Shown in pieces: positions 4,703 through 55,909 of a stretch of DNA of 64,000 nucleotides. Made by a program: the position numbers and the translations under genes. The first letter of the stretch is position 1. Each line of letters starts with the position of its first letter. Below the pieces are notes generated by a model. It saw only the letters and a list, made by a program, of their open reading frames with translations. It was not told where the DNA came from and searched no databases. Source of the DNA: an uncultured Gammaproteobacteria bacterium (GTDB taxonomy: Bacteria; Patescibacteriota; Patescibacteriia; Magasanikbacterales; GWA2-37-8). Location: positions 64,445-128,444 of the forward strand of contig CAYHBZ010000001.1 in the NCBI GenBank assembly GCA_964355175.1, read 5' to 3'.

Positions 4703-4737
4703 AAACACTCTGATTATGTCAGGGTGTTTTTGTTTTT
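4703..4737 (+). terminator. rho-independent terminator after csp
   Basis: 10-bp stem AACACUCUGA/UCAGGGUGUU followed by a U-tract. Confidence 0.65.
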
Positions 4738-4805
4738 ATTAGCTTTTTAAACTGGCTCCGGTTCTAATTTTATGGTATAGTTTAATCTGGATTAATCCAT
4801 TATTT

Positions 4806-6053
4806 ATGCGTATTGCAATTATCGGCGCGGGCGCGGCAGGCATGATGGCAGCCGCTACCATAAATGAAGAATCTCCGGAAGCAGAAGTTTTTTTAATTGA
4901 AAAAAATGACGGTTTGGGCAAAAAGGTAATTATCTCAGGCGGTGGCCGCTGTAATGTTACTACCGGTATTACTGATTTAAAAATTGTTACCAAAAAATAC
5001 CCGCGTGGAGAAAAGTTTTTAATTTCCAGCATGCACCGTTTTTCACCAGAAGATGTCCGGGCCTGGTTTGAGTCTCATGGGGTACCTCTCAAATGCGAAG
5101 ATGATCTACGTGTTTTTCCGGTTTCCAATGATGGACATGACGTGGTGCGCGCTTTTGAAACAATTTTTTCCGACAGCAATACAAAGATATTTAAAAAATC
5201 CGCTGTCCAAGCGATAGAACGAAATATGGCAAATAAAAAGTTTGTAATACAGATAAAGGGTCAGCCAGATATCGAAGCTGACTATGTGGTGTTGTCTCTG
5301 GGAGGCCAAGCCTATCGCCATACCGGGTCTACCGGTGACGGATACACCCTGGCTGAGAGCCTAGGCCATCAGATTACGCCTCTGGCGGCTAGTTTGAACT
5401 CATTTATCACCACCGAAGCCTGGCCGGCTAGTATCAGTGGAGTATCTTTTGAGCGTGCCACCTTCACCGCTGAGGGGGAGAAAAAATATAGTTTTACCGG
5501 ACCTTTTTTATTTACCCATCGTGGCATTAGCGGTCCCGCAGTATTTGCCCTATCTTCACTCATAGCCTTTGAAGATTATGGTCCAAAAAAACCTTTTGCA
5601 ATTTTTATTGATCTGTTGCCGGATGTTAAAGCGGAAAATTTAGCCTCTGAAATCAAAGAGATTATAAATAAAAATCCCAAGAAAAGTTTCCGGACTATTC
5701 TACATACCTATGTGCCGCGTTCGGTGGTAGAGACTCTAGAAAAAGAATTCCATTTACCTTTGGAAAAAAAGAGTGCCGAAGTAAGCAATAAACAAATTCA
5801 AGCGGTGATAGAAAAATTAAAACATCTGCCTGTGCACGCTGTCGGTCGGGGAGCGGGAGACGAATTCGTCACTGCCGGTGGCGTAAAATTGGAAGAAGTT
5901 AATCCCAGCACGATGGAGTCGTTAATTTGTCCAAATTTATATTTTGCCGGAGAAATTTTGGCTATCGACGGCTTTACCGGCGGCTTCAATCTGCAGGCCG
6001 CTTGGGCTACCGGTCACGCGGTCGGTGAAAGTATAGTAAATAAACTGCAATGA
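4806..6053 (+). CDS. HI0933/YhiN-family FAD-dependent oxidoreductase
   Basis: N-terminal dinucleotide-binding IAIIGAGAAG; GGGRCNVT motif typical of the HI0933 family. Confidence 0.7.
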   Translation: MRIAIIGAGAAGMMAAATINEESPEAEVFLIEKNDGLGKKVIISGGGRCNVTTGITDLKIVTKKYPRGEKFLISSMHRFSPEDVRAWFESHGVPLKCEDDLRVFPVSNDGHDVVRAFETIFSDSNTKIFKKSAVQAIERNMANKKFVIQIKGQPDIEADYVVLSLGGQAYRHTGSTGDGYTLAESLGHQITPLAASLNSFITTEAWPASISGVSFERATFTAEGEKKYSFTGPFLFTHRGISGPAVFALSSLIAFEDYGPKKPFAIFIDLLPDVKAENLASEIKEIINKNPKKSFRTILHTYVPRSVVETLEKEFHLPLEKKSAEVSNKQIQAVIEKLKHLPVHAVGRGAGDEFVTAGGVKLEEVNPSTMESLICPNLYFAGEILAIDGFTGGFNLQAAWATGHAVGESIVNKLQ

Positions 6054-7372
6054 TAAAGAAAAATTTTCTTTTCAAAATAGTCGCCGCGCTCATAATAGTA
6101 TCCAGTCTATTTCCTTTTAGCCTGCCCGCGTTTTCCGCCGATACCCAGGTGCAATTGGAGCAACAGCTCAAAGATTTGGAACAAGAAATAACCAGTTTAC
6201 AAAAACAACTAAACCTTACCACTGCGCAAAAAAATACTTTGGCCAACAAAATAAAACAGCTAAAATTAAAACAAAGTGAGCTGAGCGCTTTGATAAAACA
6301 AACAACCGTGAAAATCGACAAACTAGAGGGTAATATCAATGTCGCTGAAAAAGATTTAAAAACTAACGCTATCAGAGAAATGGAGCTGAAGGGCAATCTA
6401 ATCCGAATGATAAAAATTTCGAACCAATCCGATAAAGAGATTCTATTGGCTTTGGTATCAGCCGACGGCATGTCCAGTTTTTTTGATGAGGTTCAAAACT
6501 ATCTCAACATTTCAATTGGTTTAGAAGACATCGTCAAACAGCTACAAAAAATTCGTGTCGATATTAATCACAAAAAAACAATTTTAGAGGATCAAAAAAA
6601 TGACGCTGATAATTTATTGCAGGTTAAAACTATTCAAAAACAAGAATTGTTAAATAATATTGATGAGCAAAGTGAATTGCTCCAAAAAACTAAAGGTTTG
6701 GAAGCAAATTATAGCAGCAGTTTATCCGACAAAAAAAAGCTGGCTGTTCAGATACGCAGCCGTATTTATGAATTATTTAATACCGGCAAACAGATAAATT
6801 TCGGAGAAGCAGTGGAAATTGCCAAGCTGGCCAATCGTCTTACCGGTATCAATGTCGCTTTTGTGCTCGCGATTCTGACCCAAGAATCCAACCTGGGGAA
6901 AAATGTCGGCACCTGCAACCGGCCCAATGATCCGCCGGAAAAAAGCTGGAAAGTGATAATGAAACCAACGCGTGATCAGGAACCATTTAAAAAAATTACC
7001 GAAGAGCTTGGTTTGAATATCGACGCCACACCGGTCTCTTGTCCGATGAAAGATAAAAAAGGTAATCAAGTAGGCTGGGGTGGGGCAATGGGGCCGGCAC
7101 AGTTTATCCCCTCGACCTGGATGGGCTTTAAAGATAAGGTAGCGGCCATAACTGGAAAAGGCATGGCCAATCCTTGGGACATTCGCGATGCCTTTATCGC
7201 TTCCGGACTCAAATTAAGAGCCGCCGGAGCCGCGGATACGGAAGCCAGCTGGTGGAAAGCCGGGATGATATATTTTTCCGGCTCTACCAATACGCAATTT
7301 CGCTTTTACGGTGATAATGTGGTATCATTAACCAAGAAGTACCAACAAGATATTGAGAATCTCAATAATTAA
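6050..7372 (+). CDS. secreted coiled-coil protein with C-terminal lytic-transglycosylase/lysozyme-like domain (putative murein hydrolase)
   Basis: signal peptide; ~200 aa of heptad-rich Q/L/K sequence; C-terminal LAILTQESNLG (SLT-like catalytic Glu context). Confidence 0.4.
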   Translation: MIKKNFLFKIVAALIIVSSLFPFSLPAFSADTQVQLEQQLKDLEQEITSLQKQLNLTTAQKNTLANKIKQLKLKQSELSALIKQTTVKIDKLEGNINVAEKDLKTNAIREMELKGNLIRMIKISNQSDKEILLALVSADGMSSFFDEVQNYLNISIGLEDIVKQLQKIRVDINHKKTILEDQKNDADNLLQVKTIQKQELLNNIDEQSELLQKTKGLEANYSSSLSDKKKLAVQIRSRIYELFNTGKQINFGEAVEIAKLANRLTGINVAFVLAILTQESNLGKNVGTCNRPNDPPEKSWKVIMKPTRDQEPFKKITEELGLNIDATPVSCPMKDKKGNQVGWGGAMGPAQFIPSTWMGFKDKVAAITGKGMANPWDIRDAFIASGLKLRAAGAADTEASWWKAGMIYFSGSTNTQFRFYGDNVVSLTKKYQQDIENLNN

Positions 7373-51840: not shown

Positions 51841-52818
51841 ATGCGCTATTTTCATTCCAATAAAAACTTCAACCAATACAAACCGAGTGTATCTTTTTGG
51901 GATAGATTTAAAAAAAAACATCCTCAGAGGGGACTGAACACGATAAAAACACCAAATGTATTATCCAATCCTTTCAAAAGGGAACAGCCAAAACCCAAAA
52001 ACTACAAAAAGATATTTGTTACCGCTTTTATTTTGTTAATATTCTTAGGCTGGATTACTCTCATGCTGACCCTGCCATATTTTAAAATAAACAACATCGT
52101 AATAAATGGAACAAAAATTAGCAAATCTGCGGAAGTAAATGATTATGTTCGTTATGGTGATTATTTTAAAGATGGCTTGGTGTCACGAAGAAATTATTTT
52201 CTTTTCCAGGATAAAACCGTAGCCCAAAAAATACAAAATAAATTTTTGTATGAAAAAGTAGAAATAAAAAAGAATTTTCCCAACACTGTCAATATAATTA
52301 TCAGCGAAAAACCGGCGAGTATTATCTATGATAATAATGGAATAATATATTTACTTGATAAAGACGGCAAAATTATCAAAAAAACAAAGCTCTCCTATAA
52401 TAATACAAACCCAGCGCAACCGGCTTTAAGTCCTACCACCACACCGATAATTTCCTTGAATCAGGCCGCTTCTAGGGCTTATGAAGAAACTATGGCAGAA
52501 TATGGTAACTTTCCGGTAATTATCGATCATAAGACGATTTCAACCAACGATGATAAGCTTTTATCCGCAAAATTAATAGAGACTGCCCAACTATGGCACA
52601 AATATTTAAAAGAACAGGCGATAGGGGAAATAAAATTTTTTAGCACCGATGAAACAGACTTTAATTTGAAAATTACTTTAAATAAACCCTGGTATATACT
52701 AATAAACACTCAAAGTGACACGAACTCCCAAATGCGCAACCTAAAAATGATTTTATCAAGCAGTAATCCGACCAGCTATATAGATCTACGATTTGGAGAT
52801 CGGGTATACTGGAAATAA
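51841..52818 (+). CDS. FtsQ/DivIB-like cell-division protein (POTRA-containing)
   Basis: N-terminal cytoplasmic tail plus single TM; POTRA-like INNIVINGTKISKSAEV. Confidence 0.45.
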   Translation: MRYFHSNKNFNQYKPSVSFWDRFKKKHPQRGLNTIKTPNVLSNPFKREQPKPKNYKKIFVTAFILLIFLGWITLMLTLPYFKINNIVINGTKISKSAEVNDYVRYGDYFKDGLVSRRNYFLFQDKTVAQKIQNKFLYEKVEIKKNFPNTVNIIISEKPASIIYDNNGIIYLLDKDGKIIKKTKLSYNNTNPAQPALSPTTTPIISLNQAASRAYEETMAEYGNFPVIIDHKTISTNDDKLLSAKLIETAQLWHKYLKEQAIGEIKFFSTDETDFNLKITLNKPWYILINTQSDTNSQMRNLKMILSSSNPTSYIDLRFGDRVYWK

Positions 52819-52840: not shown

Positions 52841-52872
52841 TAAAATCTCTGAAATTTAATCAGAGATTTTTT
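52841..52872 (+). terminator. rho-independent terminator
   Basis: aaaatctctga-aatttaa-tcagagatttt. Confidence 0.6.
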
Positions 52873-52945
52873 ATTTAAAAATTTTAAAGGGAGACGGTAG
52901 AGGAGTGGCCGAAACGGGTGTGGATAAGGCCGCTTTACAGCTGGG

Positions 52946-53488
52946 TTGCTTTGTTATATAATTGAGTATAATAACTCTTACACTCAGTTATATGTACTAA
53001 TTATGCGCTTAAATAAGACAAAATCAATTAGCTTGGCCTTTAGCACCCCTTTTGATCTTTTAATGAAAAAACTATATTCAGAAAAAGAAATGTCGACTCC
53101 GGAAATTTCTGATTATATTTTTAAACAAGTAAAAATTTTTATAACTCCAAGATCAATTCAAAGAGAAATAAAAAAACTTGGATTAATCAGAGGTCTGAGT
53201 GATGCTTTTAAACTGGCTATAAAGAAAGGTAGAAAATCCTACGAGCACCTCAAAAAACCCATTAAGTCTTCCCTACTGCGCCACGGAATCACTTTGAAGA
53301 CCAGATTTGAGGTTTTCCAAAGAGACAGCTCACGCTGTGTTATTTGCGGCAAAACTGCTCAAGATGATATACTAGTAGTCGATCATATCATTCCGGTGGT
53401 CAAGGGAGGGACAAACAACATAAAAAACCTCAGAACATTATGCCGAGAGTGTAACCACGGCAAGATGCTTTTAAATGAACATATATGA
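52946..53488 (+). CDS. HNH endonuclease with N-terminal HTH-like region
   Basis: CVICGKT...VDHIIPVVKGGTNNIKNLRTLCRECNHGK = HNH with Cys4 zinc site; alternative start ATG 53003; stop overlaps the next gene's start (ATGA). Confidence 0.7.
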   Translation: MLCYIIEYNNSYTQLYVLIMRLNKTKSISLAFSTPFDLLMKKLYSEKEMSTPEISDYIFKQVKIFITPRSIQREIKKLGLIRGLSDAFKLAIKKGRKSYEHLKKPIKSSLLRHGITLKTRFEVFQRDSSRCVICGKTAQDDILVVDHIIPVVKGGTNNIKNLRTLCRECNHGKMLLNEHI

Positions 53489-54438
53489 CCTCCAACCAAT
53501 TCCCACTTCCCTACTTTGATGATTTTATTTTAAATCTTAAAGCCAATAATTTTTCGGAAGAAACTGCGTATAATTATGAACGCGATTTAAAAACTTTTGA
53601 ATCTTTTTTAAGTAACGACATAAAAAAATCTTTTGACCAAATAAATAAAACTGATATTTTACGTTTTAAGGCTTATCTTGGCTCATCTGAACGCAAAACT
53701 GCTGAAGACAAAAAACCAGAAAAAAAGCTTAATAGCTACTCTATAAACCGCATACTTTCTTCAATGCGCTCTTATTTGAAATTCATGGAAGACATGGACC
53801 ATAAATCCCCAATATCCTCTAATGCAATAAAACTGCTTAAAAACGAGAAAAAAAGCGCGCGCGTACCGGAATTTGAACAACTTATCAAACTCATTGAAGC
53901 ACCGACAAAATATGAAGAAAAAATCCAAGTAGCATTGCGTAACCGGGCGCTACTGGAAACTTTATTCGCTACCGGCATGCGTATCTCCGAACTTTTATCT
54001 CTAAAAGTTGAGCAGATCGACCAAACTGGTAAAATATATATCATGGGTAAAGGTAAAAAACAAAGATTTGTCTATCTGACACCCCGAGCTCTTGTCCATT
54101 TAAAAAGTTATTTAGCCAAAAGAAACAGCACTTCAGATATGTTGTTTGTTCCTTACCGCGGCCGCAATAATAATGAAAAAAATAAAAAACTTTCGACTAA
54201 TTATTTACAATACAAAATCAAACAATACCGTCAGTTATTGGATATAAATTTGCCAATCAGCGCCCATACTTTACGCCACAGCTTTGCCACTTTTTTGGCA
54301 GAAAAAGGTGCCAATCCAGCCGCTATTCAAATCCTTTTGGGCCACGAATCACTTGATACCACCACTAGATATGTACATGCTTCAGATAGATATGCGGAGA
54401 AGACGCATCACGAATTTCATCCACTCTTTGATAAATAA
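53485..54438 (+). CDS. Xer-like tyrosine recombinase (XerC/XerD family)
   Basis: N-terminal SAM-like domain (ETAYNYERDLKTFESFL); catalytic R...HTLRHSFAT...LLGHESLDTTTRYVH with the Tyr. Confidence 0.75.
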   Translation: MTSNQFPLPYFDDFILNLKANNFSEETAYNYERDLKTFESFLSNDIKKSFDQINKTDILRFKAYLGSSERKTAEDKKPEKKLNSYSINRILSSMRSYLKFMEDMDHKSPISSNAIKLLKNEKKSARVPEFEQLIKLIEAPTKYEEKIQVALRNRALLETLFATGMRISELLSLKVEQIDQTGKIYIMGKGKKQRFVYLTPRALVHLKSYLAKRNSTSDMLFVPYRGRNNNEKNKKLSTNYLQYKIKQYRQLLDINLPISAHTLRHSFATFLAEKGANPAAIQILLGHESLDTTTRYVHASDRYAEKTHHEFHPLFDK

Positions 54439-54466
54439 TTTTTTCTACTCGCTTGAAAATAAAAAA

Positions 54467-54497
54467 ATATCCCCCAACTTAATCGGGGGATATTTTT
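54467..54497 (+). terminator. rho-independent terminator after the recombinase
   Basis: atatccccc-aacttaatc-gggggatat plus T-run. Confidence 0.65.
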
Positions 54498-54539
54498 AAT
54501 TTCGGTTGTCATCAGACCTCACTTCACTAATGCTGACTT

Positions 54540-54855
54540 CAAAAAATAAACATTAGGGAACGGTGAGGTCTGCGCGCAGCAAACTCCGCCCGCCCTCGGA
54601 AGGACCTTGTTGGTCATCCCACAACTTCCAGCACCGAAAGTGCCAGCTGGGCCTCTTGGGCACGAGCAAAAGTCACCTGCAGGCACAGGTGGCGCTCGTT
54701 GCGACGATGAGGCACACGCCCAGCGCAATTCGGACAGCCGGAATCGCGAGGAGGCCGAGCTGAAGTCAGGGGAGCATTGGAACGAAAAGGACGTGCTTTG
54801 TCTGCCATTGTGTTTCCTTCGGTAAACGGATACAGTGCGAGAAACAACCTTCAAA
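54540..54855 (-). ncRNA. GC-rich structured RNA candidate of unknown class (~310 nt), probably minus strand
   Basis: GC-rich and stop-poor on both strands between the terminators of the recombinase and ddl; minus-strand promoter TTGACT-17-TACTAT at 54856-54884; minus-strand 3' end has a UCUGCGCGCAGA hairpin then a U-run; no tRNA-like domain found by eye. Confidence 0.3.
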
Positions 54856-54884
54856 ATAGTATCTCAAATATGGCTAAAAGTCAA

Positions 54885-54914
54885 GAAAACAGCCCTACTA
54901 TAGGCTGTTTTCTT
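54885..54914. terminator. terminator for the minus-strand ddl unit (bidirectional hairpin)
   Basis: gaaaacagcc-ctactata-ggctgttttc. Confidence 0.55.
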
Positions 54915-54928
54915 CATAATTTATATTT

Positions 54929-55909
54929 TTATAATGCCGCCGAAATTATCAAATCAAGCATTTTTGGAAACGATATCCCCGCTTTTCCAGCCGCTTCCGG
55001 AAGTAGACTAGTTCCAGTCATCCCAGGAATAGTGTTGGTTTCTATTATATATACTCGCCCATCATCCCCAAGAAAAAAATCACTGCGACTCATCCCCCGA
55101 CAGCCCAGCGCTTTGTGAGCGGTAACTGCTAATTCTTGCATCGTTTTATTCACATCTTCTGAAAAATCCGCCGGACAAATATGTTTGGATCCACCTGGCA
55201 AATATTTGGATTTATAATCATAAAATTTCCCCACTTGCGGCAAAATATGAGTTGGCGGCAAAGCAAACGCCTCACCTTTTTTCTCGAGCACTCCACAAGT
55301 AGCTTCTTGGCCTTTGATAAATTTCTGCGCCAATAGCCAAGGAAATTTTTTAATTGTTTTGTTCACTGTCTGTTTGAGATCATCTTCGGTTTTTATTATA
55401 CTTACCCCTACTGCCGATCCTTGATCTACCGGTTTCACCACACACGGATAACCGACACTAGTATTGATAGCCGCCAAAACTTCTTTCTGGCTGTTTTTCC
55501 AATTTTTGGCAGTGATATCAATAAAAGCCGGATGCGGCAAATGCCAAGAATAATATATCAGACCAGCATACACTTTATTCATACACAGCGCGCTACTTAG
55601 AGTATTTGGACCGGTATATTTGATACCCAGCGCTTCAAATATCCCTTGCACCGTACCGTCCTCCCCTGGCGTACCGTGCAAAGCAATAAATACTACATCA
55701 AATAATTTTCTGTCTTTATTTACAAAATCTACCAATCTTTTTTTATTTTTTATTTTCAAAACAAAATGATTATCTTGAGTCATTTCCACCAAACTCGGCG
55801 CATATTTTTTACGATCCAAATTATCAAAAACAGCTTGACCCGTGACCAGAGAAACTTCTCTTTCCGAAGATGACCCTCCGTACAATACCGCCACTTTTAA
55901 TTTCTTCAT
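54929..55909 (-). CDS. ddl: D-alanine--D-alanine ligase
   Basis: ATP-grasp; MKKLKVAVLYGGSSSEREVSL N-terminus; full-length Ddl homology. Confidence 0.85.
   Translation of the reverse strand: MKKLKVAVLYGGSSSEREVSLVTGQAVFDNLDRKKYAPSLVEMTQDNHFVLKIKNKKRLVDFVNKDRKLFDVVFIALHGTPGEDGTVQGIFEALGIKYTGPNTLSSALCMNKVYAGLIYYSWHLPHPAFIDITAKNWKNSQKEVLAAINTSVGYPCVVKPVDQGSAVGVSIIKTEDDLKQTVNKTIKKFPWLLAQKFIKGQEATCGVLEKKGEAFALPPTHILPQVGKFYDYKSKYLPGGSKHICPADFSEDVNKTMQELAVTAHKALGCRGMSRSDFFLGDDGRVYIIETNTIPGMTGTSLLPEAAGKAGISFPKMLDLIISAAL

Follow-up and report, generated by a model that had tools for sequence, protein, structure and literature searches.

A candidate dif/Xer module of Patescibacteria with an HNH endonuclease gene between the site and the recombinase

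In single-recombinase Xer systems, the recombinase gene can be linked to its own dif site (PMC5357621, PMC2731167): xerS and difSL are direct neighbours, joined "as a single module", and xerA/dif modules are present in some archaea (PMC5357621). Archaeal and bacterial dif sites have 14 of 28 positions in common, as reported by Cortez et al. (PMC2958812), and dif sites are known entry points for integrative elements that hijack Xer (PMC5357621). Here we analyze a 64-kb stretch of DNA (contig CAYHBZ010000001.1, positions 64,445 to 128,444; hereafter, the window) from a genome of the Patescibacteria (candidate phyla radiation, CPR), with Candidatus Magasanikbacteria as its closest named relatives. 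In the window, a dif-like site is followed by the genes for an HNH endonuclease and a Xer-like tyrosine recombinase. For this gene pair, an original prediction made from the sequence alone had proposed three identities, namely, a minimal integrative element, a dif-associated module or a homing-type selfish cassette. The comparative evidence supports the dif-associated module: a conserved site with inverted arms lies beside xer in essentially every locus examined, within a terminus-like switch of strand composition and gene orientation. We lean toward reading the locus as a chromosome dimer resolution module of Patescibacteria, in which Xer is encoded beside its own dif at the replication terminus, and the HNH protein would be a dispensable, co-transcribed helper acting at dif. 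The principal features, in window coordinates, are:

52934..52962, + strand: sigma-70-type promoter-like site of the HNH-xer operon (TTTACA, 17 nt, TATAAT; 11 of 12 matches, the best in the region)
52960..52989, unstranded: dif-like Xer core site AATTGAGTATAA-TAACTC-TTACACTCAGTT, with inverted arms of 11-12 bp and an asymmetric 6-bp centre
53003..53488, + strand: HNH endonuclease gene, 161 aa, with an N-terminal five-helix HTH (helix-turn-helix)-like domain, the basic linker AFKLAIKKGRKSYEHLKKPIKSS and a Cys4 zinc beta-beta-alpha-metal HNH core
53485..54438, + strand: Xer-family tyrosine recombinase gene, 317 aa, with the full set of catalytic residues

The recombinase matches the Pfam families Phage_integrase (E 1.3e-36) and Phage_int_SAM_1 (E 1e-10), and its catalytic residues, located by motif, are intact (R166, K190/191, H261, R264, H287 and Y296). 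XerC, XerD and XerA give its best hits among the NCBIfam models; by these scores, it is a Xer-like protein under the equivalog cut-offs of all four subfamilies compared (XerC, 197 bits vs a cut-off of 335; XerD, 189 vs 330; XerA, 179 vs 220; XerS, 90 vs 267). Its orthologs are 66-100% identical across Patescibacteria, and its ratio of nonsynonymous to synonymous substitution rates (dN/dS), computed with dS near saturation, is 0.016, the lowest in the neighbourhood. No second xer gene was found in the 64-kb window.

The dif-like site was first revealed by an alignment of the DNA that precedes the HNH gene in 12 genome loci, which had been identified with the HNH protein. Its geometry is 11-6-11, the arms being AATTGAGTATAA and AACTGAGTGTAA (the reverse complement of the right arm), with one conserved A/G difference between them. 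The AT-rich palindrome that had been noticed upstream of the HNH gene in the original prediction is real and corresponds to this site: arms at 52956-52971 and 52978-52993 are 88% complementary and lie 6 nt apart. In the window, the site ends 14 bp before the HNH start and 495 bp before xer; in loci that lack the HNH gene, 7-100 bp separate its end from the start of xer. The window contains a single copy of the 24-bp core (52963-52986), and one site was found per locus examined. Across 19 unique loci, selected through protein homology instead of the DNA pattern, the site carries 1.80 bits of information per position vs 0.48 in the flanks, and the spacer follows the consensus TA[A/T]C[T/C]C. The site lies upstream of xer in all protein-selected loci, the copy in L012 (comparison loci are denoted by L numbers) being degenerate, with 5 mismatches. 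Three HNH-less loci with the gene order serS-alr-ftsQ-xer (L033, L034 and L035, with Xer 74, 70 and 68% identical) carry the same site 40-70 bp before xer, which indicates that the site belongs with the recombinase and not with the nuclease.

An exact-pattern scan of metagenome contigs yielded at least 120 loci, of which 117 are unique among the matches listed; the counts that follow refer to the latter set. An adjacent xer ortholog (43-95% identical) is encoded at 92 of these loci, and 20 lie too near a contig end to be judged, so that xer adjoins the site in 92 of the 97 testable loci. The five testable loci without xer, three of them on phage contigs, have atypical symmetric arm variants and unrelated spacers. 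By these comparisons, the site and the recombinase form a unit whose conservation across Patescibacteria does not depend on which genes flank it. In eight loci (L069, L072, L092, L122, L149, L152, L160 and L161), the site has the opposite orientation relative to xer, and the spacer reads GGGATA or GAGATA vs TATCCC or TATCTC; hence, the polarity of the site is not fixed relative to xer.

The genomic setting of the module resembles a replication terminus. Open reading frames (ORFs) of at least 110 aa are nearly all on the + strand from 4.8 to 54.4 kb of the window, and all on the - strand from 54.9 to 63.5 kb, bar one spurious ORF inside a GC-rich stretch described below. The GC skew passes from slightly positive (+0.02) on the left to about -0.18 on the right, turning where gene orientation does, at ~52-54.5 kb, so that skew inversion and gene convergence both fall within ~2 kb of the dif-like site. 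Such a joint switch of skew and orientation is characteristic of the terminus of replication, as opposed to the origin. We surveyed 27 independent loci with at least 2.5 kb on each flank, counting a locus as terminus-type if the skew is positive to the left of the site and negative to its right and the genes converge: 20 loci, including ones with quite different sets of flanking genes, are terminus-type, none is origin-type, and 7 show no switch.

The site is also closely associated with promoters. In the window, the -10 hexamer of the promoter abuts or overlaps the left arm of the site, and the site overlaps the promoter and the 5' end of the operon. At HNH-positive loci, the promoter lies upstream, with the site at about +1. 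At many HNH-less loci, the -35 hexamer TTGACA directly follows the right arm; the complete promoter (TTGACA, 17 nt, TATAAT) was read in this position in L035 (4964-5000), L102, L110, L130, L141 and L176. Promoter geometry differs by module type. In both layouts, Xer bound at the site would be expected to interfere with transcription, which makes autoregulation a reasonable inference. We propose the site as the chromosome dimer resolution site of these bacteria and, probably, also as an operator.

The HNH and recombinase genes overlap as the original prediction had it: on the + strand, the HNH ORF ends at 53488 and the recombinase ORF starts at 53485, the two meeting in an ATGA. The same overlap is present in nine loci, and elsewhere the HNH stop and the xer start are separated by 7-20 nt or overlap by 8-11 nt; the HNH gene is coupled to xer tightly or translationally. 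By contrast, the originally assumed HNH start, a TTG at 52946, is almost certainly wrong, because the homologs (~60 proteins of ~160 aa, beginning MRLNK...) match the ATG at 53003, and because the extension would read through the site and the promoter. In the public annotation, the protein has 132 aa and starts at the internal Met30; the conservation of the family upstream of this residue (F17, D18, L24 and Y25) shows the 161-aa form to be correct. A lower GC content and a preference for A-ending codons relative to core genes had been claimed for the pair as well, but its composition falls within the range of the adjacent core genes (overall GC and GC at third codon positions of 0.358 and 0.346 for HNH, 0.356 and 0.324 for Xer, 0.366 and 0.345 for alr, and 0.330 and 0.337 for ftsQ). 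Compositional foreignness of the pair was accordingly rejected, the values being native.

The HNH protein matches the Pfam families HNH_5 (E 3.7e-14; 52.8 bits, cut-off 27.5) and HNH (E 7.9e-13). Its assignment as a Cys4 zinc HNH protein was confirmed, C112, C115, C147, C150, D127-H128 and N142 being invariant in 27 homologs. In an AlphaFold2 model, five N-terminal helices form a domain that a basic linker joins to a beta-beta-alpha-metal core. The earlier description of the N-terminal region as HTH-like stands in part: the five-helix bundle is predicted with confidence (pLDDT, the predicted local distance difference test, of 88), but it matches no HTH family, and "HTH-like" is inferred for this half of the protein from the model. 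The solved structures closest to the core are HNH nickases (4h9d and 5h0m), McrA and the HNH domains of Cas9 and IscB; the modelled core superposes on 4h9d and 5h0m, and 5h0m is the top solved relative by sequence profile (E 1.1e-7). Among defence models, PADLOC gave weak matches to type II and IV restriction HNH models and PtuB, confined to the generic HNH core. A profile search of the full library recovered 73 HNH-family clusters at E <= 1e-30 and many further two-domain relatives; three distant two-domain relatives could be placed, all in phage contexts, namely, between the genes for the small and large terminase subunits (L186), beside RecT, and among small phage-like ORFs.

Wherever it is full-length, the HNH gene lies between the site and xer: this holds for 12 of 12 species-representative genomes, for L032, L183 and L184, and for six metagenome loci. 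The gene is, however, a minority constituent, found in 6 of the 92 site-selected modules (~6%) among the matches listed. In the Xer tree, HNH-positive loci fall into one main clade and several isolated branches, interspersed with HNH-less sisters. The trees of HNH and Xer, which are rough neighbour-joining trees of small samples, are broadly congruent, and the pairwise identities of the two proteins correlate (Spearman 0.67). With dS again near saturation, dN/dS of the HNH gene is 0.10 vs L183 and 0.15 vs L184, comparable to the values for alr (0.08), ftsQ (0.09-0.24) and gltX (0.07-0.09), which indicates purifying selection on the gene where it is intact. Horizontal transfer was considered for one pair of loci, the window and L113, in which Xer is 94% but HNH only 64% identical, and was rejected, given that the core genes are equally diverged (FtsQ 44-67%, Alr 67%); the gap reflects the unusual conservation of Xer.

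Several loci preserve traces of a lost or damaged HNH gene. L100, the sister of the HNH-positive L007 and L010, retains the last 13 HNH codons (SNEGKMINEERKR), and L083 retains two HNH fragments; because of such deletion remnants, HNH-less alleles beside HNH-positive ones are read as losses and not as empty target sites. In L017 (1089-1340; Candidatus Magasanikbacteria, Xer 93% identical), an in-frame deletion has removed the N-terminal domain and linker, leaving a 64-aa product in which MRLNKMKS is fused to the HNH core and the invariant GG is changed to EG; the ATGA overlap with xer is kept. In L113 (2060-3134 as stored, - strand; Xer 95% identical), an IS3-family element, with an 86-aa HTH ORF and a 276-aa rve transposase, is inserted near HNH codon 10 and separates the promoter and dif from HNH-xer. 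From sequence comparison, the HNH gene appears to descend from a family of phage-type HTH-HNH endonucleases and to have become lodged between dif and xer; since then, it seems to have been inherited mostly vertically, to have been lost repeatedly, and to be dispensable in most lineages.

A different gene occupies the dif-xer slot in another lineage of Patescibacteria. In L163, this gene, of ~460 codons, spans 4727-6109 (8 to 1390 nt past the site). Homologs are present in L158, L119, L136, L178, L140 and L138; the copies in L101, L073 and L082 are truncated, and decayed remnants were seen as well. The N-terminal 290 aa of the protein are XerA/XerD-like, without the C-terminal tyrosine region, and the conserved C-terminal ~170 aa match no family and contain the motifs GRADLGIY ... 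YIEVG ... FLIVPSE. It may represent another type of accessory gene at dif or, alternatively, another parasite residing there.

In the mechanism that we propose by extension from the Xer family, Xer, probably as a homotetramer on the near-identical arms, would recombine the two dif copies of a dimeric chromosome at division and, when occupying the site, would repress its own operon. For the HNH protein, we propose with low confidence the role of a dispensable helper: co-produced with Xer, it might be a nickase or a structure-specific nuclease that binds DNA through its N-terminal domain at or beside dif and nicks or cuts there in concert with Xer. The nuclease could process or resolve Holliday junctions made by Xer, or nick DNA to aid unlinking. 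A stronger version, in which the HNH protein is a true co-factor of dimer resolution, present in a fixed ratio with Xer and licensing or completing recombination at dif, strikes us as distinctly unlikely; such a co-factor could act on the Holliday junction left by one pair of strand exchanges and resolve it, or it could replace FtsK-type activation, and the degenerate Xer-like gene found at the same spot in L163-type loci might then be a second solution to the same problem.

Several observations weigh against a dimer resolution module with an HNH helper. No column of the Xer alignment tracks the presence of HNH across clades, and dif and Xer look alike with and without the HNH gene, which speaks against a tight HNH-Xer partnership. 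About 94% of the sampled modules among the matches listed lack the gene, and its frequent absence and repeated decay fit a dispensable or selfish gene as well as they fit a helper. Searches of PADLOC, PHROGs, PDB and BFVD matched the generic HNH core only, leaving the N-terminal domain without a match, and no HNH-specific DNA motif was established. As for the terminus, GC skew and gene orientation are correlated proxies, the skew on the left is weak (+0.02), and the single-copy counts of dif and xer cover 64 kb of a ~954-kb contig and the individual loci. The site could, moreover, act solely as an operator.

The main rival explanation, possible but in our judgement unlikely, holds that the HNH gene encodes a selfish, free-standing homing endonuclease, active now or until recently, or is the relic of such a gene; it would cut HNH-less dif-xer junctions, be copied into them by repair and have no role with Xer. 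A nuclease joined to a DNA-binding part is the typical architecture of free-standing homing endonucleases, the distant relatives are phage-borne, and the gene, scattered over the Xer tree in ~6% of the modules among the matches listed, holds a fixed position beside the most conserved DNA of the region; the truncated, interrupted and remnant copies would fit a cycle of invasion, decay and loss, and the lack of any Xer residue that co-varies with HNH presence is what this explanation would lead one to expect. However, the HNH tree largely follows the Xer tree, without the gene-tree conflict that marks horizontal spread, and the gene has a native composition and a dN/dS (0.10-0.15) like that of its housekeeping neighbours. 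Furthermore, the deletion remnants in HNH-less alleles point to losses, dif is intact beside the gene, with no obvious target destroyed by insertion, and the coupling to xer has been kept over deep divergence. The selfish cassette of the original prediction may describe the origin of the HNH gene, given its phage-borne relatives and its patchy, decayed distribution, but not its present state, which appears vertical and under purifying selection. A related proposal, which we consider highly improbable, makes the HNH protein a guard or defence nuclease that protects dif from Xer-hijacking elements, or a generic restriction-like nuclease co-expressed with Xer. In its favor are the PADLOC hits to restriction models and PtuB, a related HNH protein encoded beside an ATPase in a Chloroflexota locus (L027), and the use of dif sites by integrative elements as entry points (PMC5357621); but those hits cover the generic HNH core only, the operon contains no partner ATPase or methylase, and no integrated elements or duplicated sites were seen at ~100 loci among the matches listed.

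Two further alternatives concern the site and the recombinase. If the palindrome were only a transcriptional operator or a 5'-UTR (untranslated region) hairpin for xer, the true dif would lie elsewhere on the chromosome; we hold this to be improbable. The site does overlap the promoter and the +1 region in HNH-positive loci and abut the -35 TTGACA in many HNH-less ones, and its uniqueness and the skew switch are known from the 64-kb window and the individual loci. On the other hand, the 11-6-11 geometry, in which the 6-bp spacer is conserved and asymmetric, is the form of a Xer core site, the site resembles archaeal and bacterial dif and occurs in either orientation relative to xer, and of 27 loci, 20 have a terminus-type switch there. 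Selection for a hairpin is made less likely by the A/G mismatch that is conserved between the arms and by the absence of covariation, and the roles of dif and operator are not mutually exclusive. The remaining alternative, that the region from 52.9 to 54.5 kb is a minimal integrative element or a prophage remnant, with the recombinase as its integrase and the site as its attachment site, is effectively refuted. An integrase gene beside an attachment site is the usual layout of such elements, and the HNH family has phage relatives. Nevertheless, this 1.5-kb region of native composition carries no cargo and a single site, with no second one in the window or within ±3-6 kb of any locus; core genes abut it on both sides, ddl ending 14-20 bp after xer in L009, L011 and L184; its syntenic position is constant over Xer identities ranging from 58% to 97%; and its recombinase gene has the lowest dN/dS of the neighbourhood (0.016). 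Returning to the dimer resolution module, the arrangement is a housekeeping one, conserved in relatives, with respect to xer and dif, and only partly so with respect to the HNH gene, which a minority of lineages carry. Overall, this is largely a housekeeping system with one unexplained, testable addition.

Additional features delimit the module and adjoin its promoter:

51841-52818: ftsQ-like ORF with a POTRA_1 domain, the upstream neighbour
52842..52870, + strand: intrinsic terminator-like hairpin closing the ftsQ-like gene (11-pair stem, then a run of T), at which the module begins on its left side
52889..52933, + strand: G-rich block just upstream of the -35 hexamer, with a perfect DnaA-box-like 9-mer, TGTGGATAA, at 52919-52927
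54463..54497, unstranded: bidirectional terminator hairpin (16-pair stem, T runs on either strand) that ends the operon where the gene orientations converge

Beyond these boundaries, the neighbours are core genes, with mreBC, PBP2, greA, lysS/asnS, serS, typA, alr and ftsQ on the left and ddl, an M23 peptidase gene, gltX and wecG on the right; the synteny of the module is the same across Xer identities from 58% to 97%. The G-rich block is ~77-83% conserved in L183, L113 and L184 despite near-saturated synonymous sites, and G(T/G)GGATAA-like words precede the -35 hexamer in distant HNH-positive loci (compared by eye); the block could be a regulatory or accessory-factor site, or a binding site of the HNH N-terminal domain. 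The 9-mer TGTGGATAA occurs three times in the 64 kb, without clustering, and was rejected as the sign of an origin, being a single box in a region of terminus-type skew and gene orientation. In L184 (5187-5900), ftsQ and the promoter-dif region are separated by ~800 bp containing small zinc-ribbon-like ORFs with repeated CxxC motifs, which the window lacks.

To the right of the operon, the candidate structured RNA of the original prediction can be retained as a GC-rich stretch (54505-54860) but not as a recognized RNA: searches of the window and of 54350-55000 with Rfam (even at E 10) and ARAGORN found no RNA family, tRNA or tmRNA for it. The stretch, probably to be read on the - strand, lies between the convergent xer and ddl genes, has ~53% GC vs ~37% locally and a fold z-score of -3.2, and contains no credible ORF. 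One end, with a hairpin of 10-bp stem (CAGACCTCAC...GTGAGGTCTG), is kept in L017 and L183, whereas the interior differs by large indels. The stretch does not appear to be tied to the HNH-xer pair, because L113, L184, L009 and L011 keep the pair and lack it; a small RNA of no known class and a small insertion element are both conceivable identities.

A separate scan of viral contigs with the site pattern also gave matches, which we considered as possible carriers of dif mimics and rejected as such: they combine a coding coincidence in leviviruses with intergenic palindromes of double-stranded DNA (dsDNA) phages. The perfect palindrome TGAGTATAAT-NNNN-ATTATACTCA in genomes of RNA phages (levivirus-like) is unrelated to Xer; in the two genomes that were read (L036 and L057), it lies inside the maturation-protein gene and encodes ...EYNYNYTQ.... 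The viral contigs with this palindrome (L036, L043, L044, L047-L051, L054, L055, L057, L058 and L061) are mostly ~4.3-4.9 kb long, some being shorter fragments. The larger viral matches are intergenic palindromes of dsDNA phages with symmetric arms and unrelated spacers. In two such contigs (L039, 8419-8442; L070, 3083-3106), a symmetric variant of the motif lies in an intergenic region just upstream of a 170-aa ORF that is followed by an ORF of ~500 aa; these are probable terminase genes, and the motif may be an operator or a packaging-related element.

No published report of a dif/Xer system in Patescibacteria was found in our literature search, and the module would thus be the first candidate for this large, uncultivated phylum. 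The pattern TGAGTATAA-N6-TTACACTCA beside xer offers a simple sequence marker of the replication terminus, which might help in checking or closing metagenome-assembled genomes and serve as an anchor for estimates of replication rate. The module would be the fourth site-linked Xer module, beside XerS, XerH and some XerA, with a promoter overlap that suggests built-in autoregulation. The original prediction made a fair point in stating that housekeeping Xer proteins are not normally paired with a nuclease, and our literature search found no published account of an HNH-Xer pairing. The logic of dif/Xer is well known; the nuclease gene kept between dif and xer appears to be undescribed and would be either a new accessory factor of Xer or a phage-type HNH gene that has settled into a core operon. 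Should the HNH protein prove to be a co-factor of recombination, the module would represent a nuclease-assisted Xer system of an undescribed kind.

Among the known systems, XerS/difSL and XerH/difH share with this locus the linkage of xer to its own dif, the near-symmetric arms and the terminus-type location. The likeness to XerH/difH is one of system arrangement, the recombinase itself having been scored against the XerC, XerD, XerA and XerS models only. The locus differs from XerS/difSL in that its recombinase falls well short of the XerS model (90 vs 267 bits) and in having a 6-bp spacer vs the 11-bp centre of difSL, and from both the XerS and XerH systems in the overlap of the site with the promoter; neither of these has been described with a nuclease gene between dif and xer. 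The archaeal XerA/dif systems resemble it in the length (28 bp), 11-6-11 geometry and almost palindromic arms of the site. The left arm, ATTGAGTATAA, agrees with that of the experimentally used Pyrococcus abyssi dif, ATTGGATATAA, at 9 of 11 positions, and the whole site agrees at 15 of 28 (PMC2958812). The score against the XerA model is near those against XerC and XerD (179 vs 197 and 189 bits) but under the XerA cut-off of 220; in addition, the host here is bacterial, dif of Thermococcales does not lie beside xerA, and XerA has no known HNH partner.

With XerC/XerD-dif of Escherichia coli and Bacillus subtilis, the locus shares the catalytic residues, the two-domain fold, the 6-bp centre, the inner ATAA ... 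TTA of the site and the location of dif at the terminus. It differs from these systems in that its recombinase scores far under the XerC and XerD cut-offs, one xer gene is present in 64 kb, and xer is linked to dif; the near-identical arms suggest one recombinase, not a heterotetramer. For the nuclease, a parallel is found in phages, whose HNH proteins of the HK97 gp74 type assist terminase at cos sites. The HNH protein encoded beside the terminase genes of GVE2 (5h0m) is, like the one described here, a small accessory nuclease encoded next to a site-specific DNA enzyme with which it presumably works, although the comparison is pure analogy: in the Patescibacteria, the partner is a chromosomal Xer, the DNA site is dif, and the gene is inherited vertically in a cellular genome.

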